Source of the DNA: Nitrospirota bacterium | GTDB taxonomy: Bacteria; Nitrospirota; UBA9217 | Length of the DNA: 64,000 nt | Assembly (NCBI GenBank): GCA_963663225.1 | Contig: OY760142.1 | Span: 1,184,001-1,248,000, forward strand | Direction: 5' to 3' | Shown: positions 657 through 9,808 of the stretch, one piece after another | Layout: every line of letters starts with the position of its first letter | Numbering within the stretch: position 1 is the stretch's first letter | Notes under the pieces: generated by a model | Told to the model about the DNA's origin: nothing | The model's input: only the letters and a program-made list of their open reading frames with translations | The model's database searches: none | Program-made: the position numbers and the translations under genes

Positions 657-1652
657 ATGAATGATCTTTCTTCCATCTCAAAAGAAAATTTTTCAATGCT
701 GGACCTTCAAAATGAAGAAACAACGGCCGGTTCTTTTATCAGACCGGCTTTGAGTGTGCCGCCTGACATGATTGCTTCAAAAATCGCTGATTATTTTTTC
801 CGTTTTCCTAAAGTCGAGGCTCTGGCAGTTGTTGATGAGACGAAGCCGGTTGCTCTGGTGACAAGGCAAAAACTTATGGCTAAACTATTGTACCGGTTTG
901 GGCAGGACCTGTTCGGCAAACATCCCATTATCTCTCTCGCCGACACTTCGCCGCTCATTATCAGTGAATTGGAACGTTTAGATGCCGTTATTGCAAAAGC
1001 AATCGAAAGAGACACCAGCGTGGCGTATGATGACATCATTGTTATTGATGAAGGCGGCCGTTTCAAGGGCCTCCTTTCCATGAAAGAGCTGGTGATACAG
1101 CAAAGCAATATTCTCGCTAAAAAAGTCAGTCAAAATCTGCAAATGATCGAAATGTTGAAGGAACTTGCACATCAGGATCCGCTGACCGGTTTATTCAACA
1201 AGAGGCATTTTTTTGAAATAGGGACAGCTCTTCATAATGCTGCTGTGCGCAATAATTTTAAAGTGGCTGTTTTTGTTGCAGATATTGACAATTTCAAGCA
1301 GGTTAACGATACGTATGGACATGACGCCGGTGACGTTGTTCTCATCAGAACCGCGCAATTGCTAAAAAATATTTTCAGGCGACAGGATGATATCATCGGC
1401 AGATTTGGCGGAGATGAATTTTCCGCGATTGTCCTTTTTAACGATATGTCATTTCTTCAGGCGCTCGCAGACAAATTGCGTCGTCATGTTCAGCAACAAA
1501 GCATTGTATACGGTAGAGAGAGAATTCGTATTACCGTGTCTCTCGGCTGCTGCACAAAAAAATTAAGTACGCTAAAGGACATGATAAAAAATGCGGATGA
1601 TTTGCTTTACGAGGCCAAAAGAGGCGGGAAAAATGCTGCCTGTGTTTTATAA
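657..1652 (+). CDS. CBS-like domain + GGDEF diguanylate cyclase
   Basis: DPLTGLFN, DIDNFKQVNDTYGHDAGD, RQDD I-site, intact GGDEF; N-terminal CBS-like pair. Confidence 0.93.
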   Translation: MNDLSSISKENFSMLDLQNEETTAGSFIRPALSVPPDMIASKIADYFFRFPKVEALAVVDETKPVALVTRQKLMAKLLYRFGQDLFGKHPIISLADTSPLIISELERLDAVIAKAIERDTSVAYDDIIVIDEGGRFKGLLSMKELVIQQSNILAKKVSQNLQMIEMLKELAHQDPLTGLFNKRHFFEIGTALHNAAVRNNFKVAVFVADIDNFKQVNDTYGHDAGDVVLIRTAQLLKNIFRRQDDIIGRFGGDEFSAIVLFNDMSFLQALADKLRRHVQQQSIVYGRERIRITVSLGCCTKKLSTLKDMIKNADDLLYEAKRGGKNAACVL

Positions 1653-1676
1653 ATGTTTTTTCTGCAACAGAACAAA

Positions 1677-1708
1677 AAACAGCTGGCTTCTTCTGAAGCC
1701 AGCTGTTT
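1677..1708. terminator. Bidirectional intrinsic terminator; likely the original tRNA-Asn terminator
   Basis: 14-bp stem AAACAGCTGGCTTC-ttct-GAAGCCAGCTGTTT with A/T tracts on both sides, 8 nt from the att core. Confidence 0.8.
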
Positions 1709-1716
1709 CTATTTTA

Positions 1717-1723
1717 TGGCTCC
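1717..1723. repeat. att core (distal junction)
   Basis: TGGCTCCGCG here vs TGGCTCCCCG at the tRNA end; adjacent to the displaced terminator. Confidence 0.75.
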
Positions 1724-1866
1724 GCGAAGATGATAAAAAAGGGCAATGGCGAGAATTAATCTTGATAAATGAGAACTGAACTGTCAATAACGGGCGATTT
1801 ACCGAGTCGGCGTTAGTGACGATTTGCTCTCAAAGGTGATAGCATGTCTACCCTATTTATTCTGCA

Positions 1867-2853
1867 CTAAGTGAGATTTTCTTCTATTGCTCTTCCTAGT
1901 TGTTTTTCCCAGCCCTTACGATGAACTATTCTCGTAAAGCCACTCATCTTACCGCTGAGAAGATCAATACGGCTCATCTTGCTGAGTTTCGCCCAGTCTT
2001 CAAACATCACATAGATTGCGTTACCATATTCAAGATTCTCGAACGCAACAAGTTTATCGGTAAATTGCGCCCCAAAGTATCTGCGAAAACCATTAGTACC
2101 TCGAATAAAAGCAATTGGGTTAAATTTCAGCAGTAAATCATATCTTGAGGCAATCTTTTTTCTGAGTTCGTCTGAGGAAGATCGAAAACCAGAAAAAATT
2201 TTGCTTATTGTTTCATTTCTTTCACCCGTAGGAAGTATTTCCCATTCGAGATAAATAGTTTTTAAATAATCATCTAAAGTAGCCTCGCTCAGAAAGACGT
2301 CGATAATTCCAACATTTTCCTGTAGGAGATTTAAATTGCAAAGCAATTTTTCTTGATATTTTTTATCTATCTTACTCAAAACCTCGTTGACTATAAATTT
2401 TAACACATAAAACTTTTCACCCTTTATTTCTTCTCCTATTAACTCAATCTTAATTTCGATTAAACCCGGTGCAATATAATCTCGCTGATAGATTTCTTTT
2501 TCGAACTCAACTTCATGAGATCCTTTACTCCAATCTCCAAAATTTGGAGTATAAAAAGAATATTTTTTTGTTCGCATGGGTAAATCTTTTCGTACAACCT
2601 CAATACCATTTATGTTCCTTTTGGAATATTTTCCCACTTCTTCTTTAGGGATTAATGTGCTCGGAAATTGCACTTTACCATCTTTTAATTGGATCGACAG
2701 ATGCTTGTATTTGTTAGCGATAATATCGTTTACCGAAATTTTTTTAACACATGCTACAAGAAAATCTTTATTTGAAAATTTAACAATTTTGGCCATTATC
2801 CAACCCGGTATTTTGCGCAGATTCTGTTTCCAACTAATTTTATTTTTTTTCAT
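1867..2853 (-). CDS. 328-aa hypothetical cargo protein (candidate defence effector/toxin)
   Basis: Long AT-rich ORF with GAGGA RBS; C-terminal FENLEYGNAIYV...DW...SR..LL...RIVH..GW segment; family not recognised. Confidence 0.85.
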   Translation of the reverse strand: MKKNKISWKQNLRKIPGWIMAKIVKFSNKDFLVACVKKISVNDIIANKYKHLSIQLKDGKVQFPSTLIPKEEVGKYSKRNINGIEVVRKDLPMRTKKYSFYTPNFGDWSKGSHEVEFEKEIYQRDYIAPGLIEIKIELIGEEIKGEKFYVLKFIVNEVLSKIDKKYQEKLLCNLNLLQENVGIIDVFLSEATLDDYLKTIYLEWEILPTGERNETISKIFSGFRSSSDELRKKIASRYDLLLKFNPIAFIRGTNGFRRYFGAQFTDKLVAFENLEYGNAIYVMFEDWAKLSKMSRIDLLSGKMSGFTRIVHRKGWEKQLGRAIEENLT

Positions 2854-2896
2854 ATCTTGTCCTCTTGGGTGTTGATTGTTATTTTAATTTGAGCAC

Positions 2897-2933
2897 AAAA
2901 AATAAGGGCAGATTATATGATTATAATCTGCCC
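2897..2933 (-). terminator. Intrinsic terminator between the small ORF and the 328-aa gene
   Basis: Perfect 12-bp stem GGGCAGATTATA/TATAATCTGCCC (2906-2933) followed on the minus strand by TTATTTTTT. Confidence 0.7.
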
Positions 2934-2943
2934 CCACTTGCCA

Positions 2944-3063
2944 CTATTTATGAAGCGGCCATGCTTTGTACCCGTAGTCTCTTGCGTCCATGATCACGCC
3001 GGTTTTCCAATGCTTAAACCGGACAACGAACCTGGCTCTCGGTTTCCGTCTCTTTGTTCGCAT
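2944..3063 (-). CDS. Unannotated 39-aa Arg-rich peptide MRTKRRKPRARFVVRFKHWKTGVIMDARDYGYKAWPLHK
   Basis: ATG 3063, TAG 2944, GGAGG 7 nt upstream; below the ORF-track size cutoff. Confidence 0.75.
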   Translation of the reverse strand: MRTKRRKPRARFVVRFKHWKTGVIMDARDYGYKAWPLHK

Positions 3064-3117
3064 AAGCGGTCCTCCATTTCCGGTAGCCCTTAACAGTAGA
3101 CTGTTTATGCTTTTTTG

Positions 3118-3146
3118 TTGACATGTGATATCGCCGGTGATATCAT
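3118..3146 (+). promoter_or_regulatory. Sigma70 promoter with overlapping palindromic operator
   Basis: TTGACA-17bp-TATCAT; near-perfect palindrome TGATATCGCCGGTGATATCA at 3126-3145. Confidence 0.7.
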
Positions 3147-3151
3147 TTTAT

Positions 3152-3249
3152 AACTAGGTGTCTACTGGTGTCCCGCCGGACTACCTCAATAAGCAGGGCA
3201 CAATCTTTTTAAAGCACCCCGCTGGCTGCAACCAGCGGGTTTTGCTTTT
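3152..3249 (+). ncRNA. Putative ~95-nt small RNA
   Basis: Consensus promoter upstream, hairpin CCCGCTGG/CCAGCGGG + TTTTGCTTTT downstream, no plausible ORF between. Confidence 0.5.
3211..3249 (+). terminator. Intrinsic terminator (better U-tract on + strand)
   Basis: Stem 3218-3225/3232-3239 followed by TTTTGCTTTT. Confidence 0.7.
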
Positions 3250-3750
3250 CTAAGCTGCCTTGTCAAGCTCCTTTACTTTTACCTCAACTTCTTGCACAAG
3301 TTTTCCAATTGATAACATAAATACTACTTGTCCTTGATGGGTTAGTGTATCGATTGCTTTCAGGAACTCGGTATCATCTTTTACAACCTTGACTATTGTT
3401 TTGCCGTAAATTAATAGTCGTGCTGTAAGTGGCATTGTTTCTCCCAACTCTTCATTAAGGTACTCGGCGCTTTTACGAATTTGTTGTATTGACATTCCGC
3501 CTTCAAGCAATGCGTTAATTGTGCTTATTTGAATTAAATCGTTAAAACTGTAAATTCTCGAAGAACCCCTCCCTTCCGAGGTTAGAATTGAAGGTTTTAT
3601 CAAACCAGTTCTAACCCAATAATCTAATTGCCGTGGTGAGATGTTCTTAAAAAGCTTTGTTACAGTTTTATTTGTGAATGCCGCCAGCTTCTTCTCCTCC
3701 TTTGAGTGCTCCATACTAAAACCTCCCTCCTGTCTATGCTGCTCGTTCAT
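3250..3750 (-). CDS. MerR-family HTH regulator (alternative start 3714)
   Basis: ISPRQLDYWVRTGLIKPS...GRGSSRIYSFNDL...LLEGGMSIQQIRK MerR motif; RBSs before both 3750 and 3714. Confidence 0.85.
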   Translation of the reverse strand: MNEQHRQEGGFSMEHSKEEKKLAAFTNKTVTKLFKNISPRQLDYWVRTGLIKPSILTSEGRGSSRIYSFNDLIQISTINALLEGGMSIQQIRKSAEYLNEELGETMPLTARLLIYGKTIVKVVKDDTEFLKAIDTLTHQGQVVFMLSIGKLVQEVEVKVKELDKAA

Positions 3751-3770
3751 AACCTCCTTTCCTAGTAATA

Positions 3771-3804
3771 ATGACAAAATATATTTTTTTTGTCATTTTG
3801 TCAA
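3771..3804 (-). promoter_or_regulatory. Promoter of the MerR-like gene with TGACAAAA operator repeats
   Basis: TTGACA(3804-3799)-17bp-TATTTT; TGACAAAA twice direct and once inverted across the promoter. Confidence 0.6.
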
Positions 3805-3837
3805 GTTTTTTGTTTTAGTACACATATTTAGTATTAT

Positions 3838-3864
3838 AACCCCCGTTTTGGTAACACGGGGGTT
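3838..3864 (+). other. Putative nic/dso hairpin for the Rep_trans/MOBT relaxase
   Basis: AACCCCCG-ttttggTAACA-CGGGGGTT resembles the CCCCC..TAACA.GGGGG nick hairpin of ICEBs1/Tn916 oriT. Confidence 0.6.
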
Positions 3865-3918
3865 CAGAAATACATTTCTGTGATTATAATGGATTACATT
3901 TTTCCCTTCATTTTTTAG

Positions 3919-3966
3919 TTGACAGCAGCTCATGCTAATGCTACTATACCAATAGTAGTATAGTGG
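3919..3966 (+). promoter_or_regulatory. Sigma70 promoter of the RHH-rep-integrase operon with inverted-repeat operator
   Basis: TTGACA(3919)-17bp-TACTAT(3942); CTACTATAC...GTATAGTGG inverted repeat over -10/+1. Confidence 0.7.
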
Positions 3967-4008
3967 TATTTAAGTATAAAATAACTTAAAAAAGAGAAGG
4001 TATAGCTT

Positions 4009-4287
4009 ATGAGAAAAAAAATCACATTATCTCTTGATCCAGACGTTTATGATGCACTGCAGGAATTACCAAGGAAAGTTTCAATTTCAGAGTTTATTTC
4101 GTGGTGTGTAAAAGCAGCGTTTGAAGACATCAAGCGCGGTCACGTTATGAGTGATGAGGAATTTAAAAAATGGCTTGAAAGTTCTCCAGATGCAAAAGAG
4201 TTTCGTGATCGCCTAAAAGAACAATGGGGCCCGACTGTTCGAAAAATTGATGATAAATTGCATCTCCGAAAAAATCAAAATGAATAA
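4009..4287 (+). CDS. Ribbon-helix-helix (CopG-like) DNA-binding protein
   Basis: MRKKITLSLDPDVYDALQEL..SISEFI strand-helix-helix pattern; directly upstream of rep. Confidence 0.65.
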   Translation: MRKKITLSLDPDVYDALQELPRKVSISEFISWCVKAAFEDIKRGHVMSDEEFKKWLESSPDAKEFRDRLKEQWGPTVRKIDDKLHLRKNQNE

Positions 4288-5368
4288 CCGCGATCACAAT
4301 AAACTTTTACTTCATGGGATAGATACTATCCAATGTGCTTACTTTATGCAACGCTTTAAGGAGATCGGGCTCGACTTTCAACTGCTAATATCGCAAAAGG
4401 AAAAGATCTGTCAATCTAAATACAAAAATCCTCTTCCTATTACGCTTGGTAATTCAGAATTTTTACTTCAACCATACGGCACTAGATCAGGATTTCCACT
4501 AGTGATTTCAAATCAAGATTTCAAAATCGAATTCGGCGAATTTAATAATCCTAATTTCTTCGTGACGTTCAGCAGTCAGGCCCTTTGGCGTGAATCCGCG
4601 TTGTTTCTTCATAATAAGTTTCTAGCATGGGCTAGGTCAGTAGGTTACGGGTCATTCAAGCCTGAAAGCTTGTCTCGTGTTGATTTTTCTTTTGATTATC
4701 ATATACAACATATTGACTTTAATGAAGACTCGTTTATCAGCCGTTCATCTAAGGATAGTCAGTATAGAGAAGATGGAAAAATTCAAACTTTCATGTTCGG
4801 CAAAGGTGATATAGTTTTACGCATTTACGATAAGGTTGCAGAAATAAAACAACAAAGCGACAAAGTCTGGTTTTTTCTTTTATGGGGCAGAGACGATGAC
4901 GTTTGGCGTATCGAATGGCAAGTGAGAAAAAATATACTCCGACGATTTGATATTAAGACTTTTGACGATTTAATTAATCAGCAAGGTGATTTGCTTACCT
5001 ATTTGGCTACTGAACATGACACATTGCGTATTCCGACAGACGACAAAAATGCTTCCCGAGATTGGCCGTTACATCCTCTATGGAAAGACTTGCAAGATAG
5101 AATCAAGGAATTAAGTCATCTTGGCATTTATAAGGTTATTGGAGACAGTGCCATTTTGGAAGAACGCACGATGCGCATGATTATATCTATGTATGGCTAT
5201 TTAAAGCGTATTGCCGCTATTAAATGTATCCAATCAAAACAACCCATGCTTTCGCCTGAGAAAGCATTAAATCATTTTGGCAACATGATCAATAAAATTC
5301 ATGAACCTCTTGATTGGGAAAATGACGTATCGAGACGCATCAAGGAAATGCAACTGGGGAAATGGTAA
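4280..5368 (+). CDS. Rep_trans-family replication initiator / MOBT-like relaxase
   Basis: GIDT, SRVDFSFD, FGKG..LRIYDK (catalytic Tyr), WRIEWQ motifs. Confidence 0.85.
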   Translation: MNNRDHNKLLLHGIDTIQCAYFMQRFKEIGLDFQLLISQKEKICQSKYKNPLPITLGNSEFLLQPYGTRSGFPLVISNQDFKIEFGEFNNPNFFVTFSSQALWRESALFLHNKFLAWARSVGYGSFKPESLSRVDFSFDYHIQHIDFNEDSFISRSSKDSQYREDGKIQTFMFGKGDIVLRIYDKVAEIKQQSDKVWFFLLWGRDDDVWRIEWQVRKNILRRFDIKTFDDLINQQGDLLTYLATEHDTLRIPTDDKNASRDWPLHPLWKDLQDRIKELSHLGIYKVIGDSAILEERTMRMIISMYGYLKRIAAIKCIQSKQPMLSPEKALNHFGNMINKIHEPLDWENDVSRRIKEMQLGKW

Positions 5369-5592
5369 CTCTAGATAAAATAGAACAGTTAGTTAAAGTA
5401 CGTCAGAAGAATATTTTGCGCTATATTGAATTATTGGATTTACCGCAAGCGCAGTTTTCTACACTTCGCAAATTACTTTTTGATGAACTGGGTCGGACTG
5501 GACTTATCAAGGAATTAGCTGGGGTTTTAGGTAGTCAGGAACGAAACGGATCGGGCAGGAATATATTGAGCAAAGAAGGCGGTGCACCATGA
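5362..5592 (+). CDS. 76-aa hypothetical element protein
   Basis: Overlaps rep stop; AAGGA RBS. Confidence 0.7.
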   Translation: MVTLDKIEQLVKVRQKNILRYIELLDLPQAQFSTLRKLLFDELGRTGLIKELAGVLGSQERNGSGRNILSKEGGAP

Positions 5593-5745
5593 TTGGGCAA
5601 GACAAAAAACCGTGAAGAACTTATCATTGATGCTAATATTTCTTTGCCGGATGAAATATCAGCGCCGGAAATTAGATTACTGGAATTTTTTTTCCCGGAA
5701 TTGTTAAAAGACGTTTTGATGCAAGTGGAACAAAATAAGGAGTAA
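5593..5745 (+). CDS. Unannotated 50-aa acidic protein upstream of the integrase
   Basis: TTG start right after the previous stop; LGKTKNREELIIDANISLPDEISAPEIRLLEFFFPELLKDVLMQVEQNKE fills the gap exactly. Confidence 0.55.
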   Translation: MGKTKNREELIIDANISLPDEISAPEIRLLEFFFPELLKDVLMQVEQNKE

Positions 5746-5749
5746 AATT

Positions 5750-7418
<1,669 letters not shown>

Positions 7419-7549
7419 ATAGTTTGAAATATGCTAGACTACTAATTTATATTGTCAGGCAGGTATAGATACCACATACAACGGTTTCTGTCAACCAGAT
7501 ATTTTTCTAAAGGAGCAGCATAGGACTAGAGTACACAGCCGTTTTGTTA

Positions 7550-8143
7550 TCAACCTCCCTGTCCTTTTTTCAGCTCCAGAATTACCAATTTTGCGATAGA
7601 TTTAAGGGTATCAAACACTCCCGTGCCTTCAGTTGCTACCGCCTCAAAATCGGGAACTCCGCGCTGATTGAGTGCCATCTTCATTTCACCCAGCGGCACG
7701 ATGTTCGGTAAATCCCGTTTATTGTATTGAATCGTAAATGGCACTTTGTTTAAATCATACCCCTGATCTGCAAGGTTCACCCGCAGGTTTTCTATGCTTT
7801 CTATGTTGGCTTCCATGCGCTCAACCTGGGAATCCGCCACAAAAACAACACCGTCTACACCCTTTAAAATGAGCTTGCGGCTGGCATCATAAAACACCTG
7901 ACCGGGCACGGTGTAAAGATGAAACCTTGTTTTAAAACCCCGTATTTCACCCAGCGCAAGCGGCAAAAAATCGAAAAATAAAGTCCGTTCTGTTTCGGTT
8001 GCAAGGGATATCATCTTGCCCTTGCTGTCAGGGTTGGTTTTTTTATAGATCCATTGCAAATTGGTTGTCTTCCCGCACAAACCGGGACCATAAAAGACTA
8101 TTTTGCAGTTAATTTCTCTCGAGGAATAATTGATAAAGGACAT
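7550..8143 (-). CDS. mglA: Small Ras-like GTPase MglA
   Basis: MSFINYSSREINCKIVFYGPGLCGKTTNL, TVPGQ, NKRD. Confidence 0.97.
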   Translation of the reverse strand: MSFINYSSREINCKIVFYGPGLCGKTTNLQWIYKKTNPDSKGKMISLATETERTLFFDFLPLALGEIRGFKTRFHLYTVPGQVFYDASRKLILKGVDGVVFVADSQVERMEANIESIENLRVNLADQGYDLNKVPFTIQYNKRDLPNIVPLGEMKMALNQRGVPDFEAVATEGTGVFDTLKSIAKLVILELKKGQGG

Positions 8144-8193
8144 GGACCGAAGTTCCTCTCCTTAAGCGTTCAGAAAACTGTGCGGTTGGACGA

Positions 8194-8688
8194 CTACCCA
8201 AAAAGTTTATCAATATCTTCATCAGTTATCTCGGCAAAGGGAGATTCTACACCCTTATCTGCTCCTTTTTCTGATTCTACTTTTTGAAGAAGATGGCCAA
8301 ATATACTGCCGAGCGATTCAGTGGTCTTCTTCACTCGAAGCCGGACAAGCCCGAGTGATGAGCGCTGGTCGAAAATAACCACCAGGATGACGCGCTGGCC
8401 GATGATGGAAATGTGAATGTTATCGCGCTGGCCTTCATGGAAAAGAATCGAAAATTCTTTTTCTCCCAGCAGTTTCGCCATGCCGCCGGTGGCTGCGATA
8501 TTCCCGGCCGTCAGTGATGCAAGAGACGTTGTATCCAGGTTGTCGGTCTCGCCGGTAGCTGCAATGAGCTGGCCGTTCTTATCGACAAGAAAGACAACTT
8601 TAGCGTTCGCTTGCTGAAGAAGACGCTGAAGTTCCGCGTCTATTTGCTTAAATTCTTCTTCGTACATTACCAAATCGGAGCCCAGCAT
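8194..8688 (-). CDS. mglB: Roadblock/LC7 GTPase-activating protein MglB
   Basis: LDTTSLASLTAGNIAATGG, SSLGLVRLRVKK; adjacent to mglA. Confidence 0.96.
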   Translation of the reverse strand: MLGSDLVMYEEEFKQIDAELQRLLQQANAKVVFLVDKNGQLIAATGETDNLDTTSLASLTAGNIAATGGMAKLLGEKEFSILFHEGQRDNIHISIIGQRVILVVIFDQRSSLGLVRLRVKKTTESLGSIFGHLLQKVESEKGADKGVESPFAEITDEDIDKLFG

Positions 8689-8788
8689 GTTTACCTCTCC
8701 TTGTTCAATAATACCTCGGTACCTCTTTGCGGCTGGAGGTAATTAAAGCATACTGCTTACCGGATTTCAAGCTTTATTTGTCGACGGC

Positions 8789-8822
8789 AAAGAAAATAGC
8801 CGGGTGAAAAAGCACCCGGCTA
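8789..8822 (-). terminator. Terminator of the por operon
   Basis: TAGCCGGGTG/CACCCGGCTA stem with T-tract on minus strand. Confidence 0.75.
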
Positions 8823-8848
8823 GATATTCTTTTCTGAAAGAAATTTTA

Positions 8849-9808
8849 TTAGCTTTTGGACATTGTCTGCAGCTTCTGGAGGAATGCCCATTCTTCATCA
8901 ATCATTTTCTGGAAGTCCGTAAGCATTGCCTCGTTTCCGGGGGCAAACATGTTTCTGAACCGGCCCTGGGGCTTCAAGAAGTCAACAAGGGGTTTCTTCT
9001 TATCTTTGGGGTCGTAGTTGATGGTGAACTTTTTGCCCTTGTCTTCCACTTCATACAGCGGCCAGTAGCAGGTATCAACAGCCAGCCGTGACATCATGAT
9101 TGAGTCGTTCAGCTGAGTTCTCCAACCGCGGTTGCAGGGGGAGATGATTCCGATGTACGCCGGGCCGTTGCTTGCGATTGCCTTCCGGACCTTGGTCATG
9201 AGGTCTTTCCAGTTGCTCGGTGACGCCTGCGCTGCATACGCACCGTGTGCTGCCATAATGCGGGTCAGGTCTTTTCTGCGCTGGGGTTTTCCTCTGACAA
9301 TTTCGCCGACCGGGCAGGTGGATGTATCTGCGCCGAAGGGCGTCGCGCTGGAGCGCTGAATACCGGTATTCATGTAGGCGCCGTTGTCATAGCAGATGTA
9401 CAGCAGCTGGTCGCCGCGCTCCATGGCGCCGGAAAGTGACTGGAAACCGATATCATAGGTTCCGCCATCGCCACCCCATGCAATAAACTTTGTATTGCCT
9501 TTGATCTTGCCTTGTTTTTTCAATGAGCGGAACATTGCTTCCATACCGGAGGCAGTCGCTGCCGAGTTCTCGAAAGCGCTGTGCAGCCAGGGCATCTTCC
9601 AGGATGTATAGGGGAAGATGCAGGACGAAACTTCAAGGCAACCCGTAGCATTGGCCGCGATTACCGGCTCATCAATAGCCATCAGGACCTGCCGTACGAT
9701 GGTTGGCGCACCACAACCTGCACACATACGGTGTCCGCTCGCAAATCTTTCCTTCTTTTTTGACAGCGCTTTTAGCGTCAGGGGTGTTTCCTGTGTCTCT
9801 GTGCTCAT
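8849..9808 (-). CDS. porB: Pyruvate:ferredoxin oxidoreductase beta subunit
   Basis: CAGCG, ATGC, GGDG TPP motif, YDNGAYMNTG. Confidence 0.95.
   Translation of the reverse strand: MSTETQETPLTLKALSKKKERFASGHRMCAGCGAPTIVRQVLMAIDEPVIAANATGCLEVSSCIFPYTSWKMPWLHSAFENSAATASGMEAMFRSLKKQGKIKGNTKFIAWGGDGGTYDIGFQSLSGAMERGDQLLYICYDNGAYMNTGIQRSSATPFGADTSTCPVGEIVRGKPQRRKDLTRIMAAHGAYAAQASPSNWKDLMTKVRKAIASNGPAYIGIISPCNRGWRTQLNDSIMMSRLAVDTCYWPLYEVEDKGKKFTINYDPKDKKKPLVDFLKPQGRFRNMFAPGNEAMLTDFQKMIDEEWAFLQKLQTMSKS

Follow-up and report, generated by a model that had tools for sequence, protein, structure and literature searches.

A widespread, unnamed protein family as candidate defence cargo behind a MerR-type regulator on a small integrative element of a Nitrospirota bacterium

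The DNA analysed here, referred to as the window, is a stretch of 64,000 nucleotides (nt) from a Nitrospirota bacterium (GenBank assembly GCA_963663225.1, contig OY760142.1, positions 1,184,001 to 1,248,000). Near its left end lies a strain-specific integrative element that carries a single cargo unit, on the minus strand, and this unit is the subject of the present work. In the direction of transcription, it consists of a gene for a MerR-type helix-turn-helix (HTH) protein (3250..3777), an Arg/Lys-rich open reading frame (ORF) of 39 amino acids (aa), termed p39 (2944..3063), a hairpin resembling an intrinsic terminator (2900..2939), and a gene for a protein of 328 aa (1867..2853). The initial annotation of the sequence had proposed a regulated defence or toxin module made up of exactly these co-directional parts, and all of them lie where it had placed them. 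They make up a naturally compact cassette of ~1.9 kb. Repressor control of accessory cargo in the setting of a defence island is an arrangement of a known kind; neither the family of the 328-aa protein nor the structure predicted for it is recorded in the collections that we searched.

The 328-aa protein, a candidate defence or conflict effector, did not match any model in Pfam, PADLOC, NCBIfam or PHROGs at E ≤ 0.1, and a scan of all seven proteins of the element, including p39 and the MerR-type protein, against PADLOC-DB v2.0.0 retrieved no family at the same threshold. Its gene is present as a single copy in the 3.26-Mb genome. A word-indexed protein search yielded 700 homologues at E ≤ 1e-3, labelled only as 'hypothetical protein' by their sources, and 1081 representatives of clusters at 50% identity were collected, 223 of them at E ≤ 1e-30 and nearly all between 305 and 350 aa in length. 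Among 185,579 species genomes (one genome per species), 91 homologue loci were confirmed, distributed over Nitrospirota, Planctomycetota, Desulfobacterota, Patescibacteria, Cyanobacteria, Acidobacteriota, Chloroflexota, Alpha- and Gammaproteobacteria, Bacillota, Actinomycetota, Bacteroidota and others, and family members were also found on 16 plasmids. Longer fused forms of the family were not found, which counts as weak evidence given the search tool. Tyr259, Tyr281, His311 and Trp315 are invariant across 104 diverse members, and Asn80, Asn175, Glu179, Arg237, Glu272, Asn273, Asn278, Ser291, Arg295 and Arg308 are nearly so. When these members were scanned one by one against Pfam, DUF3106 appeared in 11 of 104 and other families as singletons. 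A profile search against PDB sequences gave no hits, and a wider alignment gave two at chance level (E 0.45 and 1.4). A literature search, with paper supplements outside its scope, found no published study of the ~325-aa family. The earlier description of the protein as an unknown holds in that no named family matches it, yet it is far from isolated. The family is widespread, moves horizontally and so far has no name; the 328-aa protein belongs to it as a stand-alone member.

A confident AlphaFold2 model calculated from the 104-member alignment (pLDDT 93.6, pTM 0.78) shows two domains, an N-terminal one of long antiparallel strands (residues ~17–200) and a C-terminal alpha/beta domain (residues 204–328). 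Most of the conserved polar residues are carried by strands of this C-terminal part, Tyr259, Tyr281, His311, Glu272 and Arg308 among them. PADLOC and Foldseek searches with the 328-aa protein, which had been suggested as a check, were run and neither produced a clear match; for the full model, Foldseek returned nothing from PDB and BFVD at E ≤ 1e-3. In a wide search with VIA, the full model reached a best Z of 5.9, for residues 204–328 and sandwiches like those of frataxin, YjbR and the C-terminal domains of MotA and TnsE, a generic likeness, and the N-terminal domain modelled alone (pLDDT 91.1) reached a best Z of 4.8 with no chain at Z ≥ 5, both values lying below the level that is meaningful for this tool. 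Foldseek likewise retrieved no structural relative for the N-terminal domain alone. The predicted fold has no clear match in PDB or BFVD, which we do not take as proof of a new fold. Because conserved Tyr, His, Glu and Arg residues gather on the C-terminal sheet of the model and because of the generic fold neighbours, the substrate may be a nucleic acid or a nucleotide that is bound or cleaved.

To view the genetic environment of the homologues, genes were called crudely in 75 of 80 fetched loci, the remaining five being left out because the homologue itself was not called, and two genes on each side were scanned with PADLOC models (E ≤ 1e-5 for upstream and E ≤ 1e-8 for downstream genes). At least one of the two upstream genes was matched in 26 of 72 loci and at least one of the two downstream genes in 19 of 73; with both sides counted, 36 of 75 loci have a match within two genes, a union that is to be read without a matched background. 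The matches include type I and type III restriction–modification systems, LmuA, PycC (a Pycsar cyclase, with E2), dGTPase, TIR effectors, GajB-like helicases, PtuB-like and AbiO/Nhi proteins and several PDC candidates. An upstream pair of XRE and M78 genes scoring as capH/capP was found in 12 loci and an upstream LexA-like S24 repressor in seven, mainly from Patescibacteria. The suggestion that the element carries anti-phage cargo is borne out in so far as the cargo is foreign and the family lies near known or candidate defence genes at these 36 loci, often behind a repressor; as to an anti-phage role, this is association only. As the family occurs among defence genes in many phyla and has no recognisable fold, it is reasonable, if unproven, to regard it as a candidate for a new defence gene, and we infer that the 328-aa protein may be an effector in anti-phage defence or in conflict, or else a sensor-effector.

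The gene directly in front of the homologue varies. DUF2188, identical to PDC-S16, is encoded directly upstream and on the same strand at loci L001, L008, L022 and L066 according to the scan and at L036 by eye, and a 57-aa PDC-S38 protein takes the immediately upstream position, again on the same strand, at L052, L054 and L079. At nine loci (L026, L028, L033, L038, L047, L048, L050, L057 and L059), the homologue is preceded, at a distance of 7–22 nt, by the gene for a 228-aa partner whose RN[VI]LTHR motif (HEPN-like Rx4H) is invariant; Pfam support for its assignment to HEPN amounts to a single sub-threshold hit (E 9e-4). A relationship between this partner and the 328-aa family was considered and dropped, as hhalign found none. 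In a FastTree phylogeny, midpoint-rooted and read without consideration of branch supports, the nine HEPN-partnered genes form one clade and the DUF2188-partnered genes are scattered. The homologue from the window groups with L002 and L003/L004 and then with L001, the nearest branch with context, where DUF2188 fills the slot held by p39 in the window. On plasmid 5 of Lactococcus cremoris SK11 (L093), a distant 303-aa homologue (24.5% identity) follows 18 nt after the gene for a 1560-aa DEAD/DEAH helicase, and the two may constitute a two-gene system on this dairy plasmid.

Returning to the cargo itself, the 328-aa gene is preceded by a short leader (2854..2899, minus strand) with AAGAGGA as its ribosome site and with a TAAAAT that lacks a good −35 element, just as first described, and a promoter scan called nothing of the sigma70 type between the hairpin and the start codon. 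The hairpin upstream of the leader has the predicted perfect arms of 12 nt (2906–2917 and 2922–2933, 100% complementary) and a 4-nt loop; when G-U pairs are counted, it extends to 17–18 pairs, followed by a U-tract, UUAUUUUUUG. Its folding energy is −25.2 kcal/mol (z −5.13), and none of 200 shuffled sequences folded equally well. In the surrounding 2.7 kb, five terminator-like sites were found versus 2.1 ± 1.3 in shuffles. The strong ribosome-binding site ascribed to p39 is indeed present, with GGAGG 7 nt 5' of the ATG. The peptide is an orphan in which 13 of 39 residues are Lys or Arg (net charge +11), and its N-terminus is rich in both. The strong Shine–Dalgarno sequence is what sets p39 apart; it is still an unproven, candidate gene. 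A 36-aa ORF in another frame (3014..3124, minus strand), which overlaps p39 and has no ribosome site, is probably not a gene.

Further upstream, the promoter scan revealed back-to-back promoter-like sites on both strands (3118..3174). The one on the plus strand (3118–3146) reads TTGACA-17-TATCAT with a TG and scores 11 of 12, and that on the minus strand (3174–3145), GGGACA-18-TAAAAT, scores 9 of 12 and is directed at p39. A palindrome, TGATATC-N6-GATATCA (3126–3145), lies within the spacer of the plus-strand promoter; in its exact form it is unique in the 64 kb and represents a candidate operator. Operators of the MerR family are dyads in over-long spacers of 19–20 bp, whereas the spacer that holds this palindrome measures 17 bp. 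A terminator-like hairpin on the plus strand (3218..3239) lies ~70 nt past the plus-strand promoter, and together the two could possibly give rise to an RNA of ~95 nt (3153–3245; fold z −2.5) convergent with the MerR gene. This putative small RNA belongs to no Rfam family, and pairing with the leader of the minus-strand p39 transcript was rejected as not significant, 18 of 100 shuffles being equally good. The MerR gene has a promoter-like site of its own (TTGACA-17-TATTTT; 3776..3804, minus strand) in the divergent region that faces a gene for a 92-aa protein.

The regulator was correctly recognized as MerR-like. It matches PF13411 (MerR_1) with E 2.6e-12 and 47.1 bits versus a cut-off of 21.6, and it matches GlnR and TnrA chains in PDB, in keeping with an N-terminal winged helix-turn-helix of the MerR type. 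Read from a TTG codon, the protein comprises 175 aa; most likely, translation starts at the ATG at 3714, behind GGAGGGAGG, resulting in 154 aa. Homologues were detected in 36 of 401 genomes sampled from the phylum, and none of the other genes of the element was present at eight relative loci that were fetched (L110–L117). These relatives are ~210 aa long, and six of the seven scanned combine MerR_1 with a C-terminal HicB-like antitoxin domain (PF15919). Their genes directly precede hicA (L112 and L116, as a fragment in L111) or a gene for DUF3800 (L114 and L117), which suggests that DUF3800 is a toxin-like partner of MerR-HicB fusions. The protein from the window aligns with residues 2–139 of its relatives at 39–42% identity and then ends, and since the alignment stops at residue 139 of the relatives, the HicB part is missing; PF15919 gave no hit in the protein. 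It is thus either a remnant or a variant within a lineage of antitoxin-regulators, one that keeps the DNA-binding part, and a descent from antitoxins encoded in front of HicA or DUF3800 fits a regulator of toxic cargo. Models for HicA find nothing in the window at E ≤ 10, and a weak tblastn lead (E 0.021) contains an internal stop. Either p39 or the 36-aa frame as debris of HicB or HicA was rejected on the basis of tblastn (E 2.5, 3.1 and 0.021), unsupportive Pfam models and a best E of 0.46 with a local model.

We then asked how far the layout recurs. The idea of peptide and hairpin as conserved parts fails: p39 is absent from the 91 loci inspected, and a terminator-like hairpin within 230 nt upstream precedes just 7 of 73 homologues, compared with 0.9 expected from shuffles. 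A protein search provided no candidate homologue of p39, and the PDC-S38 and DUF2188 models miss it in scans of its own genome at E ≤ 10. A short ATG-initiated ORF that is highly basic and has a strong Shine–Dalgarno sequence occurs in 2 of 74 upstream regions, those of the window and L058; on the opposite strand, none of the 74 has one. L058, from a metagenome-assembled genome (MAG) of Scalindua, is the only other locus with both basic peptide and hairpin, and there divergent capH/M78 genes are followed by TTGACA-17-TATAAT, GGGAGGG, a 35-aa Lys/Arg-rich ORF, a hairpin of 13–14 bp and the homologue. The two peptides are alike in composition only, 1419 of 2000 shuffles scoring equally well. At L022, the order is DUF2188, a 10-bp hairpin and the homologue, and at L039/L064 and L125/L127 a LexA-like gene and an ORF of 66–83 aa precede the homologue. 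The trio of MerR gene, p39 and hairpin is not conserved as such; what recurs is a looser arrangement in which a repressor comes first, then a small protein of varying family, then the homologue. Elsewhere in the genome from which the window was taken (C1:513757–513927; L096), a true PDC-S38 gene (E 5e-31) has a 138-aa ORF on one side and a 178-aa membrane-like ORF on the other, and this may be another small locus of the defence type.

Several known systems invite comparison. Operons with CapH/CapP, DUF2188 and hypothetical proteins have been presented as putative defence systems (Lau et al. 2022, bioRxiv 10.1101/2022.04.27.489752). Similar features are seen at homologue loci with a capH-like HTH gene (L058, L066 and L079) or a capP-like M78 peptidase gene (L006 and L021) within two genes upstream, and at L008 and L066 with DUF2188 directly before the homologue. 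The window differs from these in having a MerR-type regulator and an orphan peptide. Small candidate defence proteins, PDC-S16 and PDC-S38, stand immediately upstream of family members and on the same strand as these, whereas p39 matches neither model. HicAB modules with MerR-HicB fusion antitoxins share the regulator over the region aligned above; they differ in that the protein in the window ends before the HicB-like domain, is accompanied by no detectable HicA and precedes an unrelated gene. Two-gene conflict systems of the HEPN type resemble the one clade of nine loci in which the 228-aa Rx4H protein always precedes the family member, a partner that the copy in the window lacks. In prophages, accessory genes sit beside repressor genes, as exemplified by rexAB next to cI in lambda. 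The cargo in the window is likewise located downstream of, and co-directional with, a repressor-like gene in a small element; unlike the lambda rexAB/cI region, this element is devoid of phage structural genes, and there is no sequence relation.

The reading that we favour, tentatively and at somewhat less than an even chance, combines these features as follows. The 328-aa protein would be a conflict or defence effector whose amount is held low. Most likely, the MerR-type protein would repress the region of the back-to-back promoters, perhaps by way of the palindrome at 3126–3145. Transcripts starting at the minus-strand promoter would encode p39 and for the most part end at the strong hairpin; a little of the 328-aa effector would come from read-through or from the weak −10 element in the leader, and more of it upon derepression. 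Low expression of the 328-aa gene is probable because a strong terminator lies upstream and because its own leader holds only a weak −10 element. p39 occupies the slot that DUF2188/PDC-S16 or PDC-S38 fills elsewhere and may be an analogous inhibitor or modulator; that it is an inhibitor-type partner like these small proteins is suggested by analogy, and we consider it rather unlikely. A broader proposal, unlikely as it stands, would make the ~325-aa family a new-fold anti-phage effector in a triad of stress-sensing repressor, small partner and effector, with the small proteins (DUF2188/PDC-S16, PDC-S38 and p39-type peptides) serving as interchangeable inhibitors or trigger sensors; if it were true, several PADLOC candidates listed as single genes would gain a function. 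Should the family confer protection from phage, the catalogue of defence proteins would gain a widespread member (at least 1081 clusters at 50% identity, in many phyla and on plasmids), and the presence in front of it of small candidate proteins such as DUF2188/PDC-S16 and PDC-S38, and of CapH/CapP- or LexA-type repressors, would be accounted for. Otherwise, the gene would count as one more unnamed accessory gene among the many that mobile elements carry.

A number of observations weigh against a defence module. The 328-aa family has no PADLOC model, Foldseek and VIA recognised no enzymatic fold or motif in the protein, and a single weak match was found among 50,697 phage records. At 39 of 75 loci, there is no PADLOC match within two genes of the homologue, some of the hits that were counted are HTH regulators only and one is an ABC transporter (L024); moreover, loci from MAGs are not independent, L003 and L004 being near-identical. 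Within the cassette, a 39-aa ORF alone is within chance expectation, given 86 ORFs of at least 30 aa in 9 kb, and neither p39 nor the MerR gene has a homologue in the 80 genome loci and 11 metagenome loci. The MerR-type protein could simply act as a maintenance repressor for the element itself.

The last point leads to a serious if doubtful alternative, in which the three genes do not form one module: the MerR-type protein would be a CI-like maintenance repressor of the element, p39 a chance or decayed ORF, and the 328-aa gene an independent 'moron' behind a terminator, with a weak promoter of its own. Such a separation agrees with the divergent orientation of the MerR gene and the operon for ribbon-helix-helix (RHH), Rep and integrase proteins across a region (3778–4008) with promoter-like sites on both strands, with the lack of a p39 homologue anywhere searched, with the 66 of 73 homologue loci that have no upstream terminator-like hairpin, and with the occurrence of MerR relatives without any other gene of the element. 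It is harder to reconcile with the strong Shine–Dalgarno sequence and the promoter-like site of p39, with the parallel layout at L058 and with the fact that MerR relatives regulate an adjacent downstream gene of the toxin type and not operons of mobile elements. Alternatively, the cargo could be an addiction module that stabilizes the element rather than defending against phage, with the 328-aa protein as toxin and p39 or the MerR-type protein as labile antitoxin, a possibility that we regard as quite unlikely. With a small basic ORF directly upstream of a larger gene, the cargo does follow the order of antitoxin and then toxin. Among the MerR relatives, a HicB-like domain and pairing with HicA are seen; BrnTA or RelE modules adjoin some distant homologues on small plasmids; and a 2026 paper links DUF2188, which takes the same slot elsewhere, to a HicB-like fold. 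A strong terminator between p39 and the 328-aa gene would, however, be unusual for a co-translated toxin–antitoxin pair, the MerR-type protein in the window is without a HicB-like domain, the small partner is not conserved, and most loci appear to reside in chromosomal defence islands.

That the 328-aa protein serves the life cycle of the element, as an accessory of replication, transfer or recombination such as a Rep-like nuclease, appears very improbable. Language-model features of one homologue (P0033) are nearest to Phage_CRI/G2P Rep clusters (0.93–0.95, a lead only), the invariant tyrosines would suit such an enzyme, and relaxases occur among weak Foldseek rows with probabilities of 0.08 or lower; these structure rows, however, are at chance level, no Pfam Rep family occurs in the 104 members, and a relationship to the element's own Rep-like protein was rejected with an hhalign probability of 0.2%. 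Around the homologues, integrase or Rep genes are mostly absent and defence genes are found in their place, and the element already has a Rep-like gene. One of the roles first envisaged for p39, that of an antiterminator resembling lambda N that allows read-through of the hairpin into the 328-aa gene, is extremely improbable in our view. The Arg/Lys-rich N-terminus, the terminator directly downstream and the similar pair of peptide and hairpin at L058 are what it has in its favour; set against these are the purely compositional likeness of the two peptides (1419 of 2000 shuffles equal), the unspecific nature of basic peptides, which are common, and the absence of an identified nut- or boxB-like element, no search aimed at boxB having been made.

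The cargo resides in an insert of ~5.7 kb (~1660–7340), which is a strain-specific integrative element of the large serine recombinase type because it is unmatched in 30 relatives and because GC content shifts at its edge. In a DNA search of these 30 relatives, matches were restricted to 1–1659 (one genome) and 7339–9000 (most genomes), with none in 1660–7338, and homology resumes at 7339–7343, i.e., at the edge of a tRNA-Asn gene (GTT; 7343..7418, minus strand) that forms the right border of the element. GC content is 33–40% inside the element versus 45–55% beyond the tRNA, and ~33% in the 328-aa gene versus 45–55% in the flanks. On the left, the block of element genes is preceded by a chromosomal GGDEF gene (657–1652, plus strand) with its terminator (1677–1708). 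The backbone (4009..7384, plus strand) encodes an RHH-like protein of 92 aa, a protein of 373 aa with a sub-threshold match to Phage_CRI (Rep; E 0.0064), ORFs of 76 and 50 aa, and the large serine recombinase of 544 aa (5750–7384), the 3' end of which overlaps the tRNA-Asn gene. Resolvase (PF00239, E 2.8e-26), Recombinase (PF07508, E 5.3e-17) and Zn_ribbon_recom (PF13408, E 2.5e-17) are all combined in this one protein at the edge of the strain-specific insert. Genes for phage structural proteins are not present in the element.

The final ~14 codons of the recombinase ORF are the complement of the 3' part of tRNA-Asn, and by eye no copy of this tRNA part was seen at the left end of the element. 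In a relative of the same genus (L092, G002:C40), the GGDEF gene and tRNA-Asn are separated by ~6.9 kb of ordinary genes for a histidine kinase, an aldehyde dehydrogenase, reductases and an AraC regulator, which are missing at this site in the genome from which the window stems. A low-depth contig of run X5 connects position 7114 back to 4207 (2908 bp), a junction that may have arisen as an artefact of assembly or may hint that part of the element exists in tandem or as a circle.

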